Source: a virus
Taxonomy: Duplodnaviria > Heunggongvirae > Uroviricota > Caudoviricetes
IMG/VR virus record: IMGVR_UViG_2541047910_000002
DNA length: 37,677 bases
Strand: one strand, 5' to 3'
The notes beneath the pieces were generated by a model that saw only the letters and a list, made by a program, of their open reading frames with translations, ran no database searches and had not been told where the DNA came from. Shown in pieces: positions 15,235-31,248 of this stretch. The number at the start of each line of letters is the position of its first letter. Within the stretch, counting starts at the first letter, position 1. A program made the position numbers and the translations under genes.

Positions 15235-15580
15235 TCTCTGCTCCTGTTGATACGGAAAGGGAAACAGGCACACCGTTATTACGCCGCCCGGTCAGCTCCA
15301 CCACCATTGAACCGTCAAAATTGCTGTTAATGGTGATGGAATCCAGCGTCAGCCGTGGCTCCCAGCGACTCAGCGCCACATACACTGCCGACATGACCTG
15401 CAGGCGTAATGCCGGATTTTGTGGCTGGTCTATCAGTGCCGACAGCAGGGAACCATATTCCCGACGGGCAATACGGCTACCCTGCGGTGTCAGCAGAATG
15501 TCCCGAACCGACTGGCGCAGATGGTCAATATCAGTAATGGCTTTGCCGCTGGTATTGTTCATCCCGCTATAAAGCGTCAT
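15221..15580 (-). CDS. W: baseplate wedge protein W
   Basis: 119 aa, overlaps J start and V stop; position and size match P2 gpW. Confidence 0.8.
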   Translation of the reverse strand: MTLYSGMNNTSGKAITDIDHLRQSVRDILLTPQGSRIARREYGSLLSALIDQPQNPALRLQVMSAVYVALSRWEPRLTLDSITINSNFDGSMVVELTGRRNNGVPVSLSVSTGAENGSD

Positions 15581-17347: not shown

Positions 17348-17618
17348 GTTTCAGTTCCTCCATCCGGCGTTGTCGTTGTCTCAGCAGTGCGCTGGTCTGT
17401 TCTGCGTCGGCATAGAGCCGCGCCTGCTCCCGGTTATTGGTTTCAGTCAGAATGGACAGGCTGATAAGCTGGCTGTTGCTCTTTGCCAGTGCCTGGCTTT
17501 GGCGCTGCAGCTCGTCTGCCTGCGTGCTGATGGTCTGGCTGGCATCAGCCAGCCGCCACGTCTGCCAGCCCAGCGCCGCCAGTAATAACGCCAGCACAAC
17601 CAGCAGCAACCGGTTCAT
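17190..17618 (-). CDS. lysB: i-spanin LysB (Rz-like)
   Basis: 142 aa, N-terminal TM then charged coiled-coil (ELQRQSQALAK...). Confidence 0.75.
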   Translation of the reverse strand: MNRLLLVVLALLLAALGWQTWRLADASQTISTQADELQRQSQALAKSNSQLISLSILTETNNREQARLYADAEQTSALLRQRQRRMEELKRENEDLRRWADTPLPADIIRLRERPALTGGAAYRQWLSASDAVSAGSGNAAH

Positions 17619-22173: not shown

Positions 22174-23940
22174 ATGAACACCACACTGACACCCGCAGAT
22201 CTCGATCCCCGTCGGCAGGCCATGCTGCTGTACTTTCAGGGATACCGCGTAGCCCGCATAGCTGAAATGCTGGGCGAGAAAGTTGCAACCGTTCACAGCT
22301 GGAAAAAACGCGACAAGTGGGGTGACTATGGGCCGCTGGATCAGATGCAGCTCACCACCGCCGCACGCTACTGCCAGCTCATCATGAAGGAGCACAAAGA
22401 AGGGAAAGATTTCAAAGAGATTGACCTGCTGGCGCGCCAGTCGGAGCGCCACGCGCGGATCGGCAAGTTTAACAATGGCGGCAACGAAGCCGACTTAAAC
22501 CCAAACGTCGCCAACCGCAACAAAGGCCCACGCCGTCAGCCGGAAAAGAATGTTTTCACCGATGAGCAGATTGAGAAGCTGGAAGAAATCTTCCATTCCT
22601 CCATGTTCAACTACCAGCGCCACTGGTGGGAAGCCGGAAAAACCAACCGCATCCGCAATCTGCTGAAGTCACGCCAGATCGGCGCGACCTTTTACTTTGC
22701 CCGTGAAGCCCTGATTGACGCCCTGCTTACCGGGCGTAACCAGATTTTCCTTTCCGCCAGTAAGGCACAGGCCCACGTCTTTAAGCAGTACATCATCGAC
22801 TTCGCCAAAGAAGTGGAGGTGGAGCTGAAAGGCGATCCGATGGTGCTTCCTAACGGGGCCACGCTTTACTTCCTCGGCACCAATGCCCGCACGGCCCAGA
22901 GTTACCACGGCAACCTGTATCTGGATGAATATTTCTGGATACCGAAATTCCAGGAGCTGCGCAAAGTGGCTTCCGGTATGGCTATTCACAAAAAATGGCG
23001 ACAAACCTATTTTTCCACGCCATCCAGCCTGACACACAGTGCTTATCCGTTCTGGTCCGGTGCGCTGTTCAACCGAGGGCGCAACAAAGCCGATAAGGTG
23101 GACATCGACCTGTCCCACCGCAATCTGGCCCCCGGCCTGCTGTGCGCAGACGGGCAGTACCGCCAGATAGTCACCGTGGAAGATGCGGTGCGCGGCGGCT
23201 GTAACCTGTTCGACCTTGACCAGTTGCGCATGGAGTACAGCCCGGACGAATACCAGAACCTGCTGATGTGCGAGTTTGTGGACGATCTCGCGTCCGTGTT
23301 CCCGCTCAGCGAGCTGCAGGCGTGCATGGTGGACAGCTGGGAAGTCTGGACCGACTTTCATGCACTGGCGCTGCGCCCGTTTGGCTGGCGCGAGGTGTGG
23401 ATCGGTTATGACCCGGCAAAAGGTACGCAGAACGGCGACAGCGCCGGGTGCGTGGTGGTGGCACCGCCAGCCGTGCCGGGCGGTAAGTTCCGCATTCTTG
23501 AGCGTCACCAGTGGCGCGGGATGGACTTCCGCGCCCAGGCTGACGCCATCAAAAAACTGACCGAACAGTACAACGTGACATACATCGGCATCGACTCAAC
23601 TGGCGTCGGCCACGGGGTTTACGAGAACGTGAAAGCATTCTTTCCTGCCGTCCGGGAGTTTGTCTACAACCCCAACGTTAAAAACGCCCTGGTACTCAAG
23701 GCCTACGACATTATCAGCCACCGCCGTCTGGAGTTTGACGCCGGACACACCGACATAGCGCAGTCCTTTATGGCAATCCGTCGCTCCACCACCGCCAGTG
23801 GCAACCGCCCGACCTATGAAGCCAGCCGCAGCGAAGAAGCCAGCCATGCGGATCTGGCCTGGGCAACGATGCACGCACTGTTTAACGAACCGCTGCAAGG
23901 CGAGTCCGCCAATACCAGCAATATTGTGGAGATTTTTTGA
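22174..23940 (+). CDS. P: terminase ATPase (large) subunit P
   Basis: 588 aa; recognised as P2 gpP-like. Confidence 0.9.
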   Translation: MNTTLTPADLDPRRQAMLLYFQGYRVARIAEMLGEKVATVHSWKKRDKWGDYGPLDQMQLTTAARYCQLIMKEHKEGKDFKEIDLLARQSERHARIGKFNNGGNEADLNPNVANRNKGPRRQPEKNVFTDEQIEKLEEIFHSSMFNYQRHWWEAGKTNRIRNLLKSRQIGATFYFAREALIDALLTGRNQIFLSASKAQAHVFKQYIIDFAKEVEVELKGDPMVLPNGATLYFLGTNARTAQSYHGNLYLDEYFWIPKFQELRKVASGMAIHKKWRQTYFSTPSSLTHSAYPFWSGALFNRGRNKADKVDIDLSHRNLAPGLLCADGQYRQIVTVEDAVRGGCNLFDLDQLRMEYSPDEYQNLLMCEFVDDLASVFPLSELQACMVDSWEVWTDFHALALRPFGWREVWIGYDPAKGTQNGDSAGCVVVAPPAVPGGKFRILERHQWRGMDFRAQADAIKKLTEQYNVTYIGIDSTGVGHGVYENVKAFFPAVREFVYNPNVKNALVLKAYDIISHRRLEFDAGHTDIAQSFMAIRRSTTASGNRPTYEASRSEEASHADLAWATMHALFNEPLQGESANTSNIVEIF

Positions 23941-24965
23941 TGGGAAAGAGTAAGAAGAACCGCGCTGCGGCGACGAAACAGATCCAGCTTAAAAGTCAAA
24001 CTACAGCCGAAGCATTCAGCTTCGGCGATCCCGTTCCTGTTCTGGACCGCCGAGAACTGCTGGACTATGTGGAATGCGTACAGACAGATCGCTGGTATGA
24101 GCCGCCAGTAAGCTTTGACGGACTGGCGCGCACCTTCCGCGCCGCCGTGCATCACAGTTCACCAATTGCGGTGAAATGCAACATTCTGACCAGTACCTAC
24201 ATCCCTCACCCGCTGCTCAGCCAGCAGGCTTTTTCACGTTTTGTGCAGGACTATCTGGTATTTGGTAACGCCTACCTGGAGAAACGCACGAACCGCTTCG
24301 GTGAAGTTATCGCCCTTGAGCCTGCTCTGGCAAAATACACCCGACGCGGGTTAGACCTGGATACCTACTGGTTTGTGCAATACGGTATGACAACCCAGCC
24401 GTATCAGTTCACGAAAGGCAGCATTTTTCATCTGATGGAACCGGACATTAACCAGGAGATCTACGGCCTGCCCGGCTATCTTTCTGCCATTCCGTCCGCC
24501 CTGCTCAATGAGTCCGCCACGCTGTTCCGCCGCAAGTATTACATTAACGGTAGTCATGCAGGCTTCATCATGTACATGACCGATGCTGCGCAGAACCAGG
24601 AGGACGTGAACAACCTCCGCAATGCAATGAAAAGTGCCAAAGGTCCGGGTAACTTCCGCAACCTGTTTATGTACTCGCCTAACGGCAAAAAGGACGGGCT
24701 TCAGATTATCCCGTTGTCAGAGGTGGCGGCGAAGGATGAGTTTTTGAATATCAAGAACGTGAGCCGCGATGACATGATGGCTGCGCACCGCGTGCCGCCG
24801 CAAATGATGGGGATTATGCCTAATAATGTTGGAGGGTTTGGGGATGTGGAGAAGGCCGCAAATGTGTTTGTGCGCAATGAACTTTTGCCATTACAGAAAC
24901 GCATGGAGGAGTTAAACCATTGGCTGGGTGAGAAAGTTATTGCATTTTCATCCTATTGTTTATGA
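23937..24965 (+). CDS. Q: portal protein Q
   Basis: 342 aa, overlaps P stop; recognised as P2 gpQ-like. Confidence 0.9.
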   Translation: MMGKSKKNRAAATKQIQLKSQTTAEAFSFGDPVPVLDRRELLDYVECVQTDRWYEPPVSFDGLARTFRAAVHHSSPIAVKCNILTSTYIPHPLLSQQAFSRFVQDYLVFGNAYLEKRTNRFGEVIALEPALAKYTRRGLDLDTYWFVQYGMTTQPYQFTKGSIFHLMEPDINQEIYGLPGYLSAIPSALLNESATLFRRKYYINGSHAGFIMYMTDAAQNQEDVNNLRNAMKSAKGPGNFRNLFMYSPNGKKDGLQIIPLSEVAAKDEFLNIKNVSRDDMMAAHRVPPQMMGIMPNNVGGFGDVEKAANVFVRNELLPLQKRMEELNHWLGEKVIAFSSYCL

Positions 24966-24975
24966 GATATAAATT

Positions 24976-25000
24976 GGTGGCCTTAATTATATAGCCACCA
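24976..25000. terminator. bidirectional hairpin between convergent Q and the TIR gene
   Basis: tggtggc (24976-24982) / gccacca (24994-25000) stem followed by tattgctttttatttt on the plus strand. Confidence 0.5.
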
Positions 25001-25009
25001 TATTGCTTT

Positions 25010-25822
25010 TTATTTTACTCTAAAGGCATCATCGGCTTTATGTGGTATAGGAGCATAACGCTCGGTACTTACTCGATGTAGCACCGCAAATATATTCAAA
25101 GGTGAACCATCCTTTAACCTAAGAGAAACATACATTGGCATCGTTGGTGTTAACCCCCGATTTAGGCCAACAGTGGCACCACTTACTTTCATACCATTTT
25201 CTAAAGATGCATTTTCAATAAACCCCTGAGTGAATGTGCTTTCTCCATTGACCATAACAACAACATCATCATGCTTAATTGTATTATCCATAATCATCAT
25301 AAAATCAGCAATTGGTTCTAAAAAATCCATTGCTGATAATTTCACTATCTTACCCCCATCACCATCCTTAATATCATAGGAGAGGTTTGAATACTTCTCA
25401 GGATTAGGAATATACGTATTTTGTTGATTAATGACATCTATAATTTGTCTTATTGCCACATCGATCCCATACGAATAAAGATCAATATATAGCGTTTGAG
25501 TAAGCAGAGCAGGCAAGGATATATTCTGGCAACGTATTGGTATAAATTTACACTTCCCGGACGATGCCTTAATTAAAGCATTTTGCCATTCCATTTTTAC
25601 CATGTTACTTGCCAAACTATTTTCTGTGACAAAAAAGAAAAAGAACGATACATTCTCCATTCCTAAATTCATCTTGTCAATAATACCCTCTCCGGGTTGG
25701 ATAGACCAAGAATCGTAGAATACGTTATCACGCCCATAAACATCTGCTAGTTTTTCCGCTATAACACTTACAAACCTTTTGTCACGGTGATTATGACTTA
25801 GAAAGATCATAGCATGCCCCAT
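25010..25822 (-). CDS. TIR-domain protein with an uncharacterised C-terminal domain (accessory gene)
   Basis: N-terminal about 130 aa shows TIR-like pattern (MIFLSHNHRDKRFV ... VTENSLASNMVKMEW with candidate catalytic Glu); C-terminal about 140 aa unassigned; A+T-rich; possible true start at 25810 (MIFLSH, GGGG SD). Confidence 0.6.
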   Translation of the reverse strand: MGHAMIFLSHNHRDKRFVSVIAEKLADVYGRDNVFYDSWSIQPGEGIIDKMNLGMENVSFFFFFVTENSLASNMVKMEWQNALIKASSGKCKFIPIRCQNISLPALLTQTLYIDLYSYGIDVAIRQIIDVINQQNTYIPNPEKYSNLSYDIKDGDGGKIVKLSAMDFLEPIADFMMIMDNTIKHDDVVVMVNGESTFTQGFIENASLENGMKVSGATVGLNRGLTPTMPMYVSLRLKDGSPLNIFAVLHRVSTERYAPIPHKADDAFRVK

Positions 25823-25891
25823 TAGAAATTAATGTGTAAGATCTGCGTAGAGAGTCACCGACAGTGTACCAATAATAATCTTCTGCGCGCA

Positions 25892-25910
25892 ATCGTATCC
25901 CCGCCACGCC
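25892..25910 (-). other. putative cos cohesive-end site
   Basis: minus strand reads GGCGTGGCGGGGATACGAT followed by TGCGCGC, resembling the P2/186 19-nt cohesive end as I recall it; lies between Q and A where cos is expected. Confidence 0.4.
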
Positions 25911-26401
25911 TGCCCGCTTTATGCAGTGGTTTTCATGCACCTGCATGACATGAGTAAAAGCTCGCCAGTTCTAGCAGGTCTCTGCAAAAACGATCCTCAA
26001 TCGATCATGCGATTTCATGCAGCATAGTCATGCACAGCCAAGGGAAGCGTAAATCCGTATCTGAATGACCGCTGAAAAGCGAATCATACGGGTTTACAAA
26101 GATGAAAGTCCGCTGTGAGTGAAAAGCGGACATTAACTCCTTGCTTTTTGGCACTGAAACAGAGCGAAGCAGCATGTAAGCTGTTACGGATGCGCAGCGG
26201 TGACAACAGCAACTTCAATTAAGGAAATGCTCTTGGTTTTCGGGGAGACTTTTCGAGCGATATATGATAATGAAGACACTAAAAAACTGAACAGAAACGT
26301 CTAGCTCAATATGACTTCTGTTCAGGTATAAATGGTCTATTTATATATTCTCTCTTCAAATCCTTACTGAATACTCTCGAAGATGGCTAACGCCCCCTCT
26401 C

Positions 26402-27364
26402 TTAACCTTCATAGTTCATGCCGCCAAGATACGAAGGTATCATCATTAATGATTTAACCCTTTCTTTTTCTTTTTCGGTGAGATGACGACATGCAAATGG
26501 GTAAATATTGATCAAAAATGTCTTGAGTTCGTCAAATGCCTCATCTGAATATAGGGTCCCAGATCTTAACTCATTCATTATTGTCATGACCCATTTTATA
26601 AACACAGTTGGCATCATTACATCAGCTATATCTTCCCAGCCATCAATAAGGCCATTGTTTGTTTGTTTTCTAACATACTGCCGGAGTGCTTGGTCGCAGT
26701 TGCCTCGACACGTCCAAAAAATATGTTCATTATACTCTGGTTCTTTTTCGTAGTCGGTGCGGATTCTTTGCCATATAGTGATAATTCCCTTGTCGTCTTG
26801 AGACAGAAGCTCTTTCTTGCAAACTTTGCATTTTAAGCTAGGTTCATCGGAAAATATTCTTGCGGGTTTGGGGTTTTCTGTTTTCCACTCAGATAACGAC
26901 TTTGGGAAGTACCTTTCGGCAATTTCCAATCCTCTGGAAGAGTGTAAAAGTTCCCTCTCTATTTTCTCTTTATCGAAAACCTGAAATTCAATTCGTCCTT
27001 TCAACCCGTCAAGTATTCCAGACAGACCTGCACTAGCAAGAGTTGAATAGAACCCGATAAATCCTTGGCAGTTATTCGCTATTACTCGATCAGTAATATT
27101 TGCATCATCTCCTGGATTAACTGAATTTCCACTATGAGCTTTATGCTTACAGCTTACCAACCAACGGATAATTGTTTCCCCGCCGACACCAGTCCTTTTT
27201 TCTTCGGCTATAATATCAACCCCACCGTCAGCCCCTCTATCTGGGTCAGATATAATTTTATATCCCAGAAAAGCTAAGAAGTCGCGAGAAAAAAGTTCAA
27301 ATGTGTCTTGCAGCCCTGTTGCTTTATGAGCCTCTGGTATTTCTTTGAAGTCTAATACTGGCAT
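26402..27364 (-). CDS. Mrr-like PD-(D/E)xK nuclease-domain protein with Cys-rich C-terminal domain (accessory gene)
   Basis: N-terminal FLGYKIISDPDRGADGGVDIIAEEK ... WLVSCKHK resembles the Mrr_cat restriction-endonuclease core; C-terminal half has CKVCKK and CRGNCDQ Cys pairs; A+T-rich. Confidence 0.5.
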   Translation of the reverse strand: MPVLDFKEIPEAHKATGLQDTFELFSRDFLAFLGYKIISDPDRGADGGVDIIAEEKRTGVGGETIIRWLVSCKHKAHSGNSVNPGDDANITDRVIANNCQGFIGFYSTLASAGLSGILDGLKGRIEFQVFDKEKIERELLHSSRGLEIAERYFPKSLSEWKTENPKPARIFSDEPSLKCKVCKKELLSQDDKGIITIWQRIRTDYEKEPEYNEHIFWTCRGNCDQALRQYVRKQTNNGLIDGWEDIADVMMPTVFIKWVMTIMNELRSGTLYSDEAFDELKTFLINIYPFACRHLTEKEKERVKSLMMIPSYLGGMNYEG

Positions 27365-27646
27365 TTTTATGGGGTCCTTAAGTTGTTAATGCTTATTGGG
27401 TGGAAAGAACCGTATTTAAACACGGAGTTTCTGCCTCTGTAAATTTAATATGTAGAACACTCATCACTTTTTATAACTGACAATAGGATATTTAGACGTC
27501 TGTTTTTGGCACAAAGCAGACAAAAAACTGAAGGCCCACTGTGAACGAGAAACGGACTATGATACTAACAAGAGAGCATCACTGTTAATATTTGAACAAT
27601 TAATGCTCAGCTATTTATCTATTTTTACAATTAGAAAGGACTTGTA

Positions 27647-28057
27647 ATGGTTACGGTTGATGAATTAAAGATGAAATATCCGGACGCGAATGCCTGGCAA
27701 ATGGGCGACAGCCCTGAACTGGCTAACGAGCTTGCAGCGCTTATCAAAAAAGGAATTAAAACGGCCTCCTGCGGCTCTTATGCCTCTTACCAGAAGGAAG
27801 AGTTTGCCCCAAGGATTGGGAGCTATAACATCATCCTTAACGGCCAAGATGTACCGGTATGCGTGACCCGGCTGGTGTCGATGCGACTGGTGCGTTTTTG
27901 TGATGTTACTGCCGAGTTCGCTCGCAAGGAAGGTGAAGGCGATTTGAGTCTTGAATATTGGCAGAGAGAGCATCAACGATTTTTTACATGTGAAGGTTAC
28001 TTTTCTGATGATATGGAGCTGATTATGGAAGAGTTTGAAGTTGTTGATGTTTTGTAA
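27647..28057 (+). CDS. ASCH-domain protein
   Basis: 136 aa; pattern ...ELIKKGIKTASCG...FTCEGYFSD... typical of ASCH/PUA-like fold; AAAGGA SD 8 nt upstream. Confidence 0.6.
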   Translation: MVTVDELKMKYPDANAWQMGDSPELANELAALIKKGIKTASCGSYASYQKEEFAPRIGSYNIILNGQDVPVCVTRLVSMRLVRFCDVTAEFARKEGEGDLSLEYWQREHQRFFTCEGYFSDDMELIMEEFEVVDVL

Positions 28058-28209
28058 TCCAACAACGTTTATGCATGTCAGATTAGAATAACTGAGTACC
28101 GTTTTATCACGTGAAATTTGTATTAATGCCCGCCTCTGGCACAAAGCGAACGAGCACTTATCAAAATGCCCACCCACCTTACGCCTCGTTTCACTCGTTG
28201 CCAAAACTA

Positions 28210-28239
28210 GCCCCCATCAGAATGAATCCTCTTGGGGGC
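28210..28239. terminator. hairpin between convergent ASCH gene and tum/dinI-like gene
   Basis: gccccca (28210-28216) / tgggggc (28233-28239) stem; the minus strand has TAGTTTTGG after the stem. Confidence 0.45.
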
Positions 28240-28247
28240 AACGTTTC

Positions 28248-28481
28248 TTAATGCAGCCAGCTGTCGTCTTCCCACACCTTCTGCATAATTTTCATCACTT
28301 GTTTTCTTTCTTCGTCCAGTTGCAATCCGGTAAGTTCCACACCGTTAGAGCTACCTTTGCGGATACGAATTACCGTTTTGGGATACAGGGGGCGCAGATT
28401 GCGGTAAAGCTCGGATTCAAGGGCGTCCAGGGTAGACTGGCTAATCTTCTGCTCTTTATCGATCATTATTTCAATGCGCAT
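28248..28481 (-). CDS. DinI-family protein (Tum-like antirepressor C-terminal module)
   Basis: 77 aa, MRIEIMIDKEQKISQSTLDALESELYRNLRPLYP...VWEDDSWLH resembles E. coli DinI; GAGGTGA SD overlapping the upstream gene stop. Confidence 0.75.
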   Translation of the reverse strand: MRIEIMIDKEQKISQSTLDALESELYRNLRPLYPKTVIRIRKGSSNGVELTGLQLDEERKQVMKIMQKVWEDDSWLH

Positions 28482-28492
28482 AAAAAGTCACC

Positions 28493-28681
28493 TCAACTGA
28501 TGACATCCATTGAGCGGTTGTATTCGTGGGTTCTGATTTTTGCCATGAGTTCATCTGTTAGTTCAGAAACCCACTGCAAAGCCAGCCCCTTCTCTTCATC
28601 ACTACACTCACTAGTCGCTACAAGCTTAAGAAAAAAATCAATGCGCTGGAGCTTCAAAGACTCCAAAAAATAGTCCTGCAT
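28493..28681 (-). CDS. small protein, first gene of the LexA-controlled operon (possible Tum N-terminal part)
   Basis: 62 aa with AGGAGG SD; translationally coupled to the DinI-like gene; LexA box about 45 bp upstream. Confidence 0.55.
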   Translation of the reverse strand: MQDYFLESLKLQRIDFFLKLVATSECSDEEKGLALQWVSELTDELMAKIRTHEYNRSMDVIS

Positions 28682-28722
28682 CTTTCCTCCTATGACACCA
28701 AAGCAATACTGTATACATAACC

Positions 28723-28741
28723 ACTGTTTATATTTACAGTA
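28723..28741. promoter_or_regulatory. LexA (SOS) box
   Basis: aCTGTttatatttACAGta fits the CTGT-N8-ACAG consensus; a second partial box (tactgtatacataaccactg) overlaps at 28708-28727. Confidence 0.7.
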
Positions 28742-28833
28742 TATAATAATCTTACTGATGTAAAACGTTTTTTTACGTTCATCAGCCTGATATGCCTGGT
28801 ATTATTAAGAGCACGAATTGTTAACCCGCGTAA

Positions 28834-31248
28834 TTAATACAGGTTCCGCCACTTATCATCTTCCTGCAAACGCTGGTTCCGATAGAAGATACGCAGGCCT
28901 GCTCCTGACGGAATACTGCCGCCGCGAAGGAGTAAATCGACCTCTTTCTCGCTACCATCAAATCCTCTGGACTTCAGCTCATAGACGAGCTGCAGTCGCT
29001 GATGGTCTGTAATTCGCTGTTTGTAGTCTTTACGCCGTTTCGGTTTAACCAGGCGTAACCTTGCAGCCAGTTCCCGGCGCTCTTTTTTGCTCATACTGTG
29101 CAGGTAATCGTGCAACTCCTTGTCATCCATGCGGGTAATGTCCGTTCTGATGTCCCCATCAGCTGATTTATCTTTCTCCTGTTGGTTCAAATTTTCAGCA
29201 AGGGGACAGTTATTGCCACGAGTCCAAGGGGCGCAAGCGCCCTGGTCGGCTGCCGCCTCCTGAACGTCAACGGCTTTACGAACCATTTTCCACTTCACTG
29301 CATGGGTGCAGATCTTGCCCTCTGCAATGGGTGACCAGATGCCATAAATACGAATGCCGTGATCGCCATAGGCGGTCGGCTCTTCGTTGATTTCATAAGC
29401 GGTTCTGATGAGGTGATATTTACGGGGAACCAGTACGCCGCCCTGCTTCATGATGTAGGTGGCAAAACAACCAGCATCAGCAGCAGCCAGAATGGCATCA
29501 AGACGCGGGTTATCCAGTACCGGCGCACCTGCTTTTTTGTCACCCTGTTGCCTTGCCGCCTGACCAGCCAGCAAGCGAAGTTCACGGTAAGCCTGACGCC
29601 CCGGAATACCAAAGAAGCGGAATTGCTGAACACGATGCAGAGACGCCCAGGCATTCACGTATTCAGCGTTATCACGCAGAGATTTACCCGTTTCCTTGCT
29701 GATCTCGCCAGCCAGACCACGACCGTCAATGTTCTTACTGATATATTTCGCGATGTAGCTTGTCGGCGTTCCTTTGCGCGGGTTAATCAACTCAGACTTA
29801 AAGCGCGGCCCAGTGTTATTGCCCAGCTCCTCGCGGTCTTCACGGATGGCAAACTTACGCAGTAATGCAGTGATGGCACGGCGGTCTTTTTTGCGCATGA
29901 AACACAACAGGTGCCAGTGAACTGTGCCATCATGATGCGGCTCAGCCACCCGCACGCCATACCAGCGCAACCCGGCTTTGTGCATCGCCTTACGAAATGC
30001 AGCAAACATGCCGACCAGATAATCGCTGCTTTGTCTTACCGTCGCGTTTGTCCAGGTCGGGTTTGGTCTGCCGTTATTTAGCGTGGAATGGAAACGCGAC
30101 GGACAGGTGATAGTGTAGAAAACGGCGCAGTCACCGCGCATTTCCGCAATAAGCTCCAGACCTTTAACACAGGCCATCATCTCATTGCGGCGATGCGCAG
30201 GGTTGCTGCTGCTGGCGTTTACCACCTCCTCCATGTCCAGCGTGTCGCCGTCTTCGTTCACCAGTTCATGAGAACGGAAAAACTCCAGCGACTTACGGCG
30301 CTGCTCACGTTTATGCATCACGGCTTCATAGCTGACATAAGGAGATGCTTTTTTGCTGACCAGGCAAACAGCGCGCAACTGCTCTTCCCGCCATTCGCAA
30401 CGCATCTTCCATAATTTCCGATACCACCAGTCGGCGCACAACATACGCGCCAGCGAACCCGGAATGAGTTCATAGGGCACGGGTTTACGGCGGTTTCTTT
30501 TCCGACGGAGTTGCTCAAACGCAGGTGGGATGACATCCAGACGCAGGGTTTCCGCTGCCACCTTTTCCCATGTCTTGCGGATTTCTTCTGGCTTAACGTC
30601 ATCGGTGGCATACAAATCACCACAAGCTGCATCAAGGCACATACTCATATGCGCAGCTACCAGGGTGGACAGGCGTTTCACCTGATCCTGACTCATTTCA
30701 GGCAGGATCAGCAGGCCGTCCAGCCCTTCATGGCTTGCCATAAAGCGAAAAGATGCAGATAGCTGACTGTCGCGTACATGCTCCAGTCGTTCCAGACATG
30801 GCTTAATCGTCTCACGTAAATAGCGGGAATAAGCCTTTGGCCTGCCCAGGCTGCTGAAGTATTCAATACGTTGCATCAGCGGCTTGCTGATATGGGAAGG
30901 CAGGGCGTTGACGTCCGCCAGAATGACCATGTCTGAATTAAAACGCTGCTGCTCATGCGCCAGCTTTGCCCGGCTAATGAGCTTATCCTGCTCCATTTCG
31001 CGCTGGACAGGATCACGTGATTCATTAAAGAAATAACGCTCCCAGACCTGATCACTCAGTGCCTCGCGGCGCAACTGTTCCTGCTCGTTATCGGCAGCGT
31101 ACAGAGTGATCAGGTTTGAAAGCGTAGAAACCGGCGCAACTTCCGCCGGGTCCAGATAAGGGTTAATGGCCTTTTTCGGGCTGTTCCATGAGAATGCTGC
31201 GGCAGCCTCGTTAAAGCCGCAGCAGTTGTTCATATCGGCATGACTCAT
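28834..31248 (-). CDS. A: rolling-circle replication initiator A
   Basis: 804 aa with HxH (VHWHLL) and YIAKYISK active-site tyrosine motifs typical of P2 gpA; ATG overlaps the dam stop. Confidence 0.9.

Follow-up and report, generated by a model that had tools for sequence, protein, structure and literature searches.

Two palindromic units bound exchangeable cargo cassettes in a P2/186-like prophage of Escherichia coli and in other enterobacterial replicons

The DNA examined here, IMG/VR virus record IMGVR_UViG_2541047910_000002 (37,677 nt in all, hereafter the window), is a P2/186-like prophage of E. coli whose orientation is reversed with respect to the P2 map. Between its cos block, which is the packaging site, and its DinI-like gene lie two cargo genes, one Mrr-like and the other encoding an ASCH domain. 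We find that these genes are bracketed by two kinds of palindromic unit, termed A and B, so that the window reads cos - B - Mrr-like - A.B' - ASCH - A - probable terminator - DinI (Table 1). The units are real and, within the window, confined to the cos-DinI gap. Comparison with relatives reveals that cassettes are gained, lost and replaced with junctions that fall inside the units or at their edge, that one cassette moves between unrelated phage backbones, and that the cargo-proximal arm of a unit travels with the cargo while the outer arm and centre stay with the backbone.

The initial annotation of this DNA had noticed an 11-mer, TGGCACAAAGC, on either side of the ASCH gene, each copy followed by GAACGAG, and had read these repeats as points of cassette-like exchange or as a shared regulatory site. 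That observation is partly confirmed. The copies lie where they were placed: the 11-mer has just two exact copies in the window, at 27507-27517 and 28137-28147, and GAACGAG lies at 27543-27549 and 28148-28154. The repeat is not an 11-mer, however, and a second unit type was missed. In P2-like relatives TGGCACAAAGCG.AC begins the backbone tail next to DinI, at its left end, and the complementary arm precedes it; these relatives, together with the copies on Rahnella and Pantoea plasmids, identify the 11-mer as the centre and 3' arm of a longer palindrome, unit A. We write unit A as GTCCGCTTC-TGGCAC-AAAGCGGAC (general form xxGTCCGCTTC-TGGCAC-AAAGCGGACxx) and unit B as GTCCGCT(A/G)T-GAGCGA-AAAGCGGAC (general form xxGTCCGCTRT-GAGCGA-AAAGCGGACxx). 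Both are palindromes of 24-28 bp that share the same inverted arms of ~11 bp and differ in their centres of ~6 bp, and 20 of 24 positions of A agree with the reverse complement of B. In Enterobacterales B commonly trails A after 11-18 nt, forming an A.B doublet.

Position weight matrices (PWMs) for A and B, trained solely on non-P2 enterobacterial copies (Pantoea, Erwinia, Mixta, Klebsiella and others), match the window at four sites only, all on the + strand and all in the cos-DinI gap. Their scores of 23-41 bits compare with maxima of 12.8 bits (A) and 16.7 bits (B) over 100 simulated windows. The B unit at the cos-side cargo boundary is spelled GTCCGCT-GTGAGTGAA-AAGCGGAC. Each of the two A units, GTCTGTTTT-TGGCAC-AAAGCAGAC upstream of ASCH and GCCCGCCTC-TGGCAC-AAAGCGAAC at the DinI-side boundary, holds one copy of the 11-mer and scores 28.0 bits. 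The fourth site is a degenerate B, B' (GGCCCAC-TGTGAACGAGA-AACGGAC), separated from the upstream A by a linker of 11 nt; the doublet upstream of ASCH in Pantoea sp. S18 has a linker of the same length, while those of other doublets are 14-18 nt. The two main copies are thus real as scored by independent PWMs, while the bare strings do not exceed chance. Allowing at most one mismatch, the 11-mer has 4 matches where 1.37 are expected (7 of 100 shuffles reach 4), three further exact 11-mer pairs lie within the same 4 kb, and GAACGAG has 5 matches against 3.5 expected. These counts are what a chance 11-mer repeat in AT-rich intergenic DNA would give, but such a repeat is refuted by the PWM scores and by the constant offsets at which the units stand in dozens of relatives, and we attach practically no probability to it.

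Other details of the initial annotation did not survive. Its view that the downstream copy is the upstream one with an internal deletion is wrong, because the upstream GAACGAG lies inside the centre of B' and the downstream one combines the final 4 nt of the 3' arm of the downstream A with an adjoining GAG; they occupy non-homologous positions in units of different type. The related 10-mer that it reported, TTTTTGGCAC, does occur as a pair, with coordinates that were off by one (correctly 26145-26154 and 27503-27512), but the copy at 26145 is indistinguishable from chance: taken as a decayed A, it reaches 18 in gapped local alignment, where the 99th percentile for window tiles is 20, and the stretch that contains it (26137-26170) is kept only as part of the Mrr module. 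Nor does the motif sit in each intergenic gap of the hotspot, the gaps between Q and the TIR gene and between the TIR gene and cos being without units.

The Mrr cassette provides a direct view of a junction. Between cos and DinI the window holds two cassettes, B-Mrr-A and then B'-ASCH-A. A P2-like contig, L154, carries cos-B-ASCH-A-DinI, without the Mrr gene and with one hybrid B. It aligns to window positions 25882-26131 and 27529-29000, with an overlap of 29 nt that lies within this single B, the left part of which is identical to the window's B and the right part to B', so that the crossover falls in the 6-nt sequence CTGTGA. Thus the Mrr segment of 1,426 bp was gained or lost via recombination within B units, between partners that agree at only 18 of 24 aligned positions and differ by one indel. 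The Mrr module (26100-27513) is also present, at 98.8 % identity, in an E. coli genomic island adjoining an integrase pseudogene, and there the homology stops at the centre/arm boundary of the upstream A (27513). The 5' flank of B', CTGAAGG, is that of B in the island copy of the module, as predicted for the insertion of a circular cassette. Such a circle would carry the junction ...AAAAAACTGAAGG + hybrid B + ATTAACTCC...

The ASCH cassette has relatives on plasmids. The gene and both of its flanks (27542-28126) show 78 % DNA identity to a locus on a Rahnella aceris plasmid, where the motif sequence stands at the equivalent place downstream of ASCH and a B-like remnant upstream of it aligns with B'. 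On the plasmid of Pantoea sp. S18, ASCH is flanked by A.B upstream and by A downstream, and three motif copies occur within 4.4 kb of a Pantoea plasmid. Mrr accompanies ASCH in 10/10 contexts of the exact ASCH protein; an obligate pair is nevertheless rejected, ASCH occurring alone in L154 and Mrr alone in the island. PADLOC returned no strong match for the Mrr-like gene and no system match for Mrr and ASCH together. Two further observations concern the Mrr cargo. One prophage, in E. coli CFIAFB20180540 (L006), has an IS2 inside the Mrr-like gene with ASCH intact and is otherwise identical to the window. The ~100 nt upstream of the Mrr-like gene (27387-27487) match, at ~82 %, an unannotated spacer near ychF that lies directly downstream of a tyrosine integrase gene and is found in about 124 E. 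coli genomes.

The initial annotation had proposed asking whether the motif is conserved at cargo boundaries in related prophages or is as frequent elsewhere. It is conserved at the boundaries, has no other site in the window, and among complete E. coli genomes occurs at 1-5 places (median 1) in 2,431 of 5,426, in spacers beside accessory or defence-type genes and prophage morons. Our sample of P2-like loci comprised 84 distinct cos-DinI intervals from IMG/VR, in which units were never found in the Q-cos gap or the flanking 6 kb. Across different cargos B always begins 71-73 nt after the cos block, and A lies about 126 nt before the DinI stop; the 'empty' cos-DinI gaps of 83-84 bp have neither unit. 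The leader that joins cos to B is found only in P2-like lineages with units. When the cargo of 98 loci was clustered, 10 of the 17 types in the cos-DinI gap had a unit. The downstream A adjoins at least 10 different cargos. In about a quarter of E. coli P2-like prophages (11 of 40 rows, sampled evenly) backbone homology ends at it; the window and contig L153 diverge at the outer edge of A's left arm.

The same arrangement recurs at a second locus of P2-like phages, where B-cargo-A occupies the G-FI (Z/fun) hotspot. In reference P2 itself (L408), fun(Z), the classical lysogenic-conversion gene of that phage, lies on the minus strand between B and A (~15331-15362 and 17428-17459; 36.5 and 23.8 bits). 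P2's own tin/old TO region contains no unit, and none of the phage genomes in INPHARED has a B leader of the TO type seen here.

Beyond the P2-like phages, exact A units are present in at least 120 contigs from IMG/VR and in 120 or more from genomes. The order of units is strict: among 120 viral loci seeded with an exact A, B precedes A in 83 spaced pairs (median spacing 1.7 kb) and follows it in 1, adjacent doublets are A.B in 29 cases and B.A in 1, and in 79 of the 89 multi-unit loci all units lie on one strand. The P2-like contig L355 and a Rac-like lambdoid prophage, L344 (which carries YdaT, DUF977, DUF968, RusA and antiterminator Q), share a segment of 1,489 bp at 99.5 % identity. This segment consists of B - HAD hydrolase - NUDIX - A, and the homology runs from the first base of the B stem to the last base of the A stem, with differences inside B confined to its outer arm. 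At the lambdoid site of this cassette we find five cargos (1466, 1707, 2080, 2994 and 4108 bp) between one and the same pair of backbone flanks; here too the cargo-proximal arm varies with the cargo while the outer arm and centre stay with the backbone. Together with the hybrid B of L154 and the variety of P2-like cargos, the shared cassette and the five lambdoid cargos bear out cassette-wise exchange of cargo at short conserved sequences, so that this reading of the initial annotation, only partly supported as it was worded, is largely right though wrong in its details. As a separate observation, the 1.49-kb HAD-hydrolase and NUDIX cassette (4484-5972 in L344, and in some ten other IMG/VR loci) is the commonest B-cargo-A content in the viral sample, its hosts being Rac-like prophages and one P2-like phage.

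Units are also dense on a plasmid. In the 558-kb plasmid pAR1aA of Pantoea agglomerans, two 50-kb stretches (L276 and L404) contain 23 and 21 units, and two other 50-kb stretches (L402 and L403) contain 0. The unit-rich stretches consist of small accessory genes (GNAT, VOC, cupin, NUDIX, GST, ASCH). All 44 units are on one strand, whatever the orientation of the genes, at a density of ~1 per 2.2 kb, and the 23 units of the first stretch, checked against the gene table, are all intergenic. By analogy the pattern may be described as array-like, reminiscent of integron cassette arrays without the integrase. Further afield, many Alphaproteobacteria (L163, L235, L228 and others; Xanthobacteraceae, Pseudolabrys, Hyphomicrobiales) have runs of 2-3 palindromes of 28-29 bp that share the arms ATGTCCGCTT..AAGCGGACAT, with the form ATGTCCGCTTT-TGGCAC-AAAGCGGACAT. 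The centres TGGCAC, CGGGGGT and TGACCC generally follow one another in this order, with spacers of ~17-20 nt. A 22-nt pattern is exactly identical across phyla, and the alphaproteobacterial runs often trail genes ending in ...ADEVIE*.

What, then, do the arms conserve? Over 248 distinct cores there is almost no compensatory change between them, the counts at pair 4 being CG 163, TG 34, CA 15 and TA 5. The window's B has a DNA hairpin z of -4.4; the upstream A could form a perfect 9-bp stem, of unexceptional energy (z = -0.5). The scarcity of compensatory change and the ordinary fold energies of the A copies led us to reject a structured RNA or DNA selected for pairing, and neither the hotspot nor any of six unit-rich loci had a match in Rfam at E <= 1. 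It is the sequence of the arms, rather than their pairing, that is conserved, which fits recognition by a protein; the occurrence of the same arms with other centres in Alphaproteobacteria, taken with the scarce compensatory change, is consistent with this. We also considered a sigma-54 promoter (TGGCAC-N5-TTGC), which was rejected on reading the sequence, the -12 element being missing in both copies.

Our tentative preference, to which we give somewhat less than an even chance, is that exchange at the units is carried out by a recombinase that reads the arms, with strand exchange in or next to the centre and with only like units pairing. A cassette runs B-gene(s)-A on one strand, and two abutting cassettes give the A.B doublet. 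Recombination would be like with like, A x A and B x B: two crossovers would swap a cassette, a single crossover with a circular cassette would insert it, and the whole would amount to a natural two-site cassette exchange. We favour a recombinase because of the 11-6-11 layout, the two types of centre and the strict order of units; because sequence and not pairing is conserved; because partners that match poorly have crossed over in register; and because one junction with a non-homologous partner lies at the centre/arm boundary of A.

Several results weigh against this preference. We found no recombinase beside the units, the 138 kb of Pantoea array regions that were read carry no annotated one, and P2-like and lambdoid phages have no obvious recombinase in common. 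The junctions are not at one fixed phosphodiester, that of L153 lying at the outer edge of A and others in centres. The units have only 6-8 identities in 28 to E. coli dif, in either orientation. Rac-like prophages encode RecET, which is able to recombine homologies of ~25 bp, making a dedicated enzyme dispensable. Cargo is exchanged without units in 7 of the 17 cos-DinI cargo clusters and in the whole of the Q-cos gap. It is also important to note that, both the viral and the genome samples having been seeded with the exact A unit, their counts are biased to intact units. Extending the recombinase reading, one might suppose that A and B are the two heterospecific sites of a dedicated system not described in the current mobile-element and defence-hotspot literature, which would shuttle B-gene-A among unrelated prophages (those of both P2-like hotspots and of Rac-like lambdoid phages), islands and megaplasmid arrays in Enterobacterales, with sites that have the same arms and other centres serving related systems in Alphaproteobacteria; we hold this to be conceivable but rather doubtful.

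The main rival is recombination at portable short homology. On this explanation the near-identical units of 24-28 bp would be dispersed repeats beside genes of the donor genomes and would serve ordinary or relaxed homologous recombination or template switching (RecA, RecET or Red-type), with no dedicated recombinase. Phage mosaicism is reportedly known to arise through relaxed recombination by Rad52-like phage enzymes. Over 24 nt intact units hardly differ from one another, junctions occur at varying places in or beside units, and no recombinase gene is linked to them, all of which this explanation accommodates. It sits less well with the B x B' crossover, whose imperfectly matched partners have only 6 nt of exact identity, with the near absence of A x B products (83:1 among spaced and 29:1 among adjacent pairs) although both arms are common to A and B, and with the island junction at the centre of A, where the partner is non-homologous. 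We regard it as a serious possibility.

Single-strand transposition of the HUH type is, in our judgement, improbable. B and A would here be the hairpins at the left and right ends of non-autonomous elements, IS200/IS605-like or of the REP/RAYT type, that carry passenger genes and are moved by a Y1 transposase acting in trans. Each end has a hairpin, both being on one strand, without target duplication at two insertion sites; the 44 Pantoea units keep to one strand regardless of gene orientation; the doublets resemble REP doublets in that A approaches the reverse complement of B; and the homology of the shared cassette stops exactly at the feet of the stems. Yet that same likeness of A to the reverse complement of B means that the ends also read as inverted repeats. 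The left flanks differ moreover (..CCTTCTA before the G at the lambdoid site, ..GATGAAA before the G at the P2-like one), leaving no common tetra- or pentanucleotide target 5' of the insertion; crossovers lie inside the units and not at offset cleavage sites; and the hairpin energies of the A copies are, as noted, ordinary. A tblastn search for homologues of E. coli RayT gave no match in the loci that were fetched, whole genomes not being searched.

We think it equally improbable that the units are passive or regulatory elements, that is, terminators, insulators or mRNA-stabilising hairpins, with the position of the junctions reflecting only the tolerance of non-essential DNA. REP-type palindromes stabilise transcripts, and the downstream A adjoins the probable terminator of the DinI operon and is part of the conserved backbone tail. 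However, the units coincide with no predicted promoter or terminator, are not followed by a T-run, and remain on one strand whatever the orientation of the neighbouring genes; the shared regulatory site that the initial annotation had offered as an alternative likewise finds no support in these predictions. The hybrid unit of L154 and the nucleotide-exact ends of the shared cassette reveal recombination inside units.

Turning to known systems, the closest is found in P2-like phages themselves. Two GenBank records of the 'proviral Z-region', AJ512677 (P2-EC31) and AJ512681 (P2-EC48), are annotated with a 'left inverted repeat' and a 'right inverted repeat' around inserted open reading frames (ORFs). 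The annotated left inverted repeat contains unit A in both (34.6 and 44.6 bits with the same PWMs), and P2-EC48 has three further B units between ORFs. The source of these records, Nilsson et al. 2004 (Mol Biol Evol 21:1), asserts site-specific recombination in its title and reportedly argues for copies in pathogenic enterobacteria. The Z (fun) inserts thus resemble the cargo of the window in belonging to the same unit family, with foreign genes entering a variable locus at conserved repeats. PMC9122126 cites Nilsson et al. 2004, in one line, for 'two variable loci', and the window's cargo likewise lies in one of two P2-like variable loci (Q-to-A, TO), bracketed by the same repeats; the difference is that its units stand at the other locus, from cos to DinI in the TO region. 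Recent hotspot papers mention no palindromes or hairpins, their references to repeats concerning other things, and a full-text literature search with the unit sequence returned a single paper, an unrelated one on microRNA. Inserts bounded by inverted repeats are therefore already known from the P2 Z region, while their reach across phage families, islands and plasmids appears unappreciated.

A second parallel is offered by the dif modules found on Acinetobacter plasmids, whose pdif sites are substrates of XerC/XerD recombination (PMC6449649, PMC13141974). Like A, B and the alphaproteobacterial form, those sites are short (~28 bp) with an 11-6-11 layout, and oppositely oriented sites bracket accessory modules that are shuffled between replicons. 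Unlike them, the units have arms unrelated to dif, and on the identities given above we reject a dif-like sequence. The unit arms are also palindromic, which suggests a single recognition specificity; neighbouring cassettes carry a doublet rather than one common site; and the hosts are prophages, islands and plasmids of Enterobacterales. We know of no Xer dependence for A or B units.

With integron cassettes the units share, in the Pantoea arrays, co-oriented structured repeats that separate single small accessory genes. The A.B doublet of ~60-70 nt comprises two nested inverted repeats, as does attC, and the architecture of the window is as expected from insertion of circular cassettes. On the other side, no IntI, attI or Pc is seen in the annotation of the Pantoea stretches, whose gene tables are incomplete and in which no integrase search was run; of the attC R''/R' consensus (RYYYAAC, GTTRRRY) the units show no more than AAC ahead of A and GTT behind B, both frequent; and the genes lie in both orientations, with the cassette boundary between the two palindromes. 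REP and REPIN elements are likewise extragenic imperfect palindromes of 24-28 nt that form doublets of two inverted copies and reach a high local density in some genomes, in our case the ~1 per 2.2 kb of pAR1aA. The units differ from them in having only 1-5 copies in E. coli and not hundreds per chromosome, in clustering in accessory-gene stretches (0, 0, 23 and 21 in the four plasmid stretches), in keeping to one strand in the Pantoea stretches, in having no GTAG head, and in the lack of a RayT homologue in the fetched loci. Our conclusion from these comparisons is that the units fit none of dif modules, integron cassettes or REP doublets outright, the results on membership being mixed.

The surroundings of the units are summarised in Table 1. 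The cos block, in which the reverse complement of 25895-25911 is GGCGTGGCGGGGATACG (annotated P2 cosR is GGCGAGGCGGGGAAAGCAC), splits the Q-to-A hotspot into a Q-cos and a cos-DinI gap, and all motifs of the initial annotation fall in the latter. The leader contains nested inverted repeats at 26043-26107, AAATCCGTAT...ATACGGGTTT around GACCGCTGAAAAGCGAATC. At the other end of the gap, the DinI-like gene is 100 % identical across 80 IMG/VR loci, and the hairpin and T-run that precede it on the map are, from their sequence, likely to be the DinI-operon terminator. A perfect palindrome resembling a LexA box, CTGTTTATATTTACAG, lies at 28724-28739 (within 28706-28742), upstream of the 62-aa ORF and the DinI-like gene, and is the sole such site in the window; it suggests that these two genes form a putative SOS-controlled operon, which presumably resembles the tum region of phage 186. 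The Q-cos gap (24950-25886) is a separate cargo slot without A or B units. In the window it holds the TIR_2 gene, and in otherwise identical prophages it holds the retron Ec67 reverse transcriptase, SLFN/AlbA_2 with HATPase_c_4, or HIRAN with an uncharacterised gene. It has sharp breakpoints, one where Q ends at its 3' side (24950-24975), the other ~10 nt to the left of the cos cohesive end (25880-25886).

Table 1. Features of the window between the Q region and replication gene A, in map order; PWM windows are given in brackets after the unit coordinates.
Feature	Position	Strand	Score or basis
Terminase and portal (Q)	22174-24965	+	
TIR-domain gene (TIR_2)	25010-25822	-	Pfam
cos block, packaging site	25885-26035	.	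84-91 % identity in every P2-like locus examined
Leader from cos to unit B	26036-26107	+	Common to all B-bearing cargo classes; missing from 83-84 bp 'empty' gaps
Unit B	26108-26131 (26104-26135)	+	41.1 bits
Mrr cassette, 1,426 bp	26119-27544	.	Present here, missing from L154; delimited by CTGTGA, the crossover region shared by B and B'
Possible decayed unit A with loop insertion	26137-26170	+	Contains TTTTTGGCAC at 26145-26154; not significant
Mrr_cat restriction-endonuclease-like cargo gene, 320 aa	26402-27364	-	Pfam PF04471, E = 4.7e-6
Unit A, upstream copy	27498-27521 (27494-27525)	+	28.0 bits
A.B' doublet linker, 11 nt	27522-27532	+	
Unit B', degenerate	27533-27557 (27530-27561)	+	23.1 bits
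ASCH-domain cargo gene, 136 aa	27647-28057	+	Pfam PF04266, E = 1.3e-22
Unit A, downstream copy, DinI-side cargo boundary	28128-28151 (28124-28155)	+	28.0 bits
Backbone tail with hairpin 28210-28239, then T-run on - strand	28152-28247	-	Sequence reading; kept in relatives
DinI-like gene, first backbone gene at A-side of gap	28248-28481	-	Pfam PF06183, E = 6.6e-23
62-aa ORF	28493-28681	-	
Replication gene A	28834-31248	-	

The hotspots of P2-like and P4-like phages are now mined as reservoirs of anti-phage systems, and the route by which their cargo is exchanged is openly unresolved; Rousset et al. 2022 offer only speculation on cos ends and homologous recombination. For one part of the P2-like hotspot our data supply junction sites at nucleotide level. 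These sites also delimit the cargo of the Z/fun hotspot, lambdoid prophages, E. coli islands and plasmid arrays, and one cassette has been caught in two unrelated phage backbones. The observation of inverted repeats in the Z region, made in 2004, seems to be absent from present work on the hotspots and merits being reconnected with it. The units are a practical marker for delimiting the cargo cassettes of prophages, and with them the movement of morons and defence genes becomes a testable matter, namely which enzyme acts on a site of 24-28 bp.

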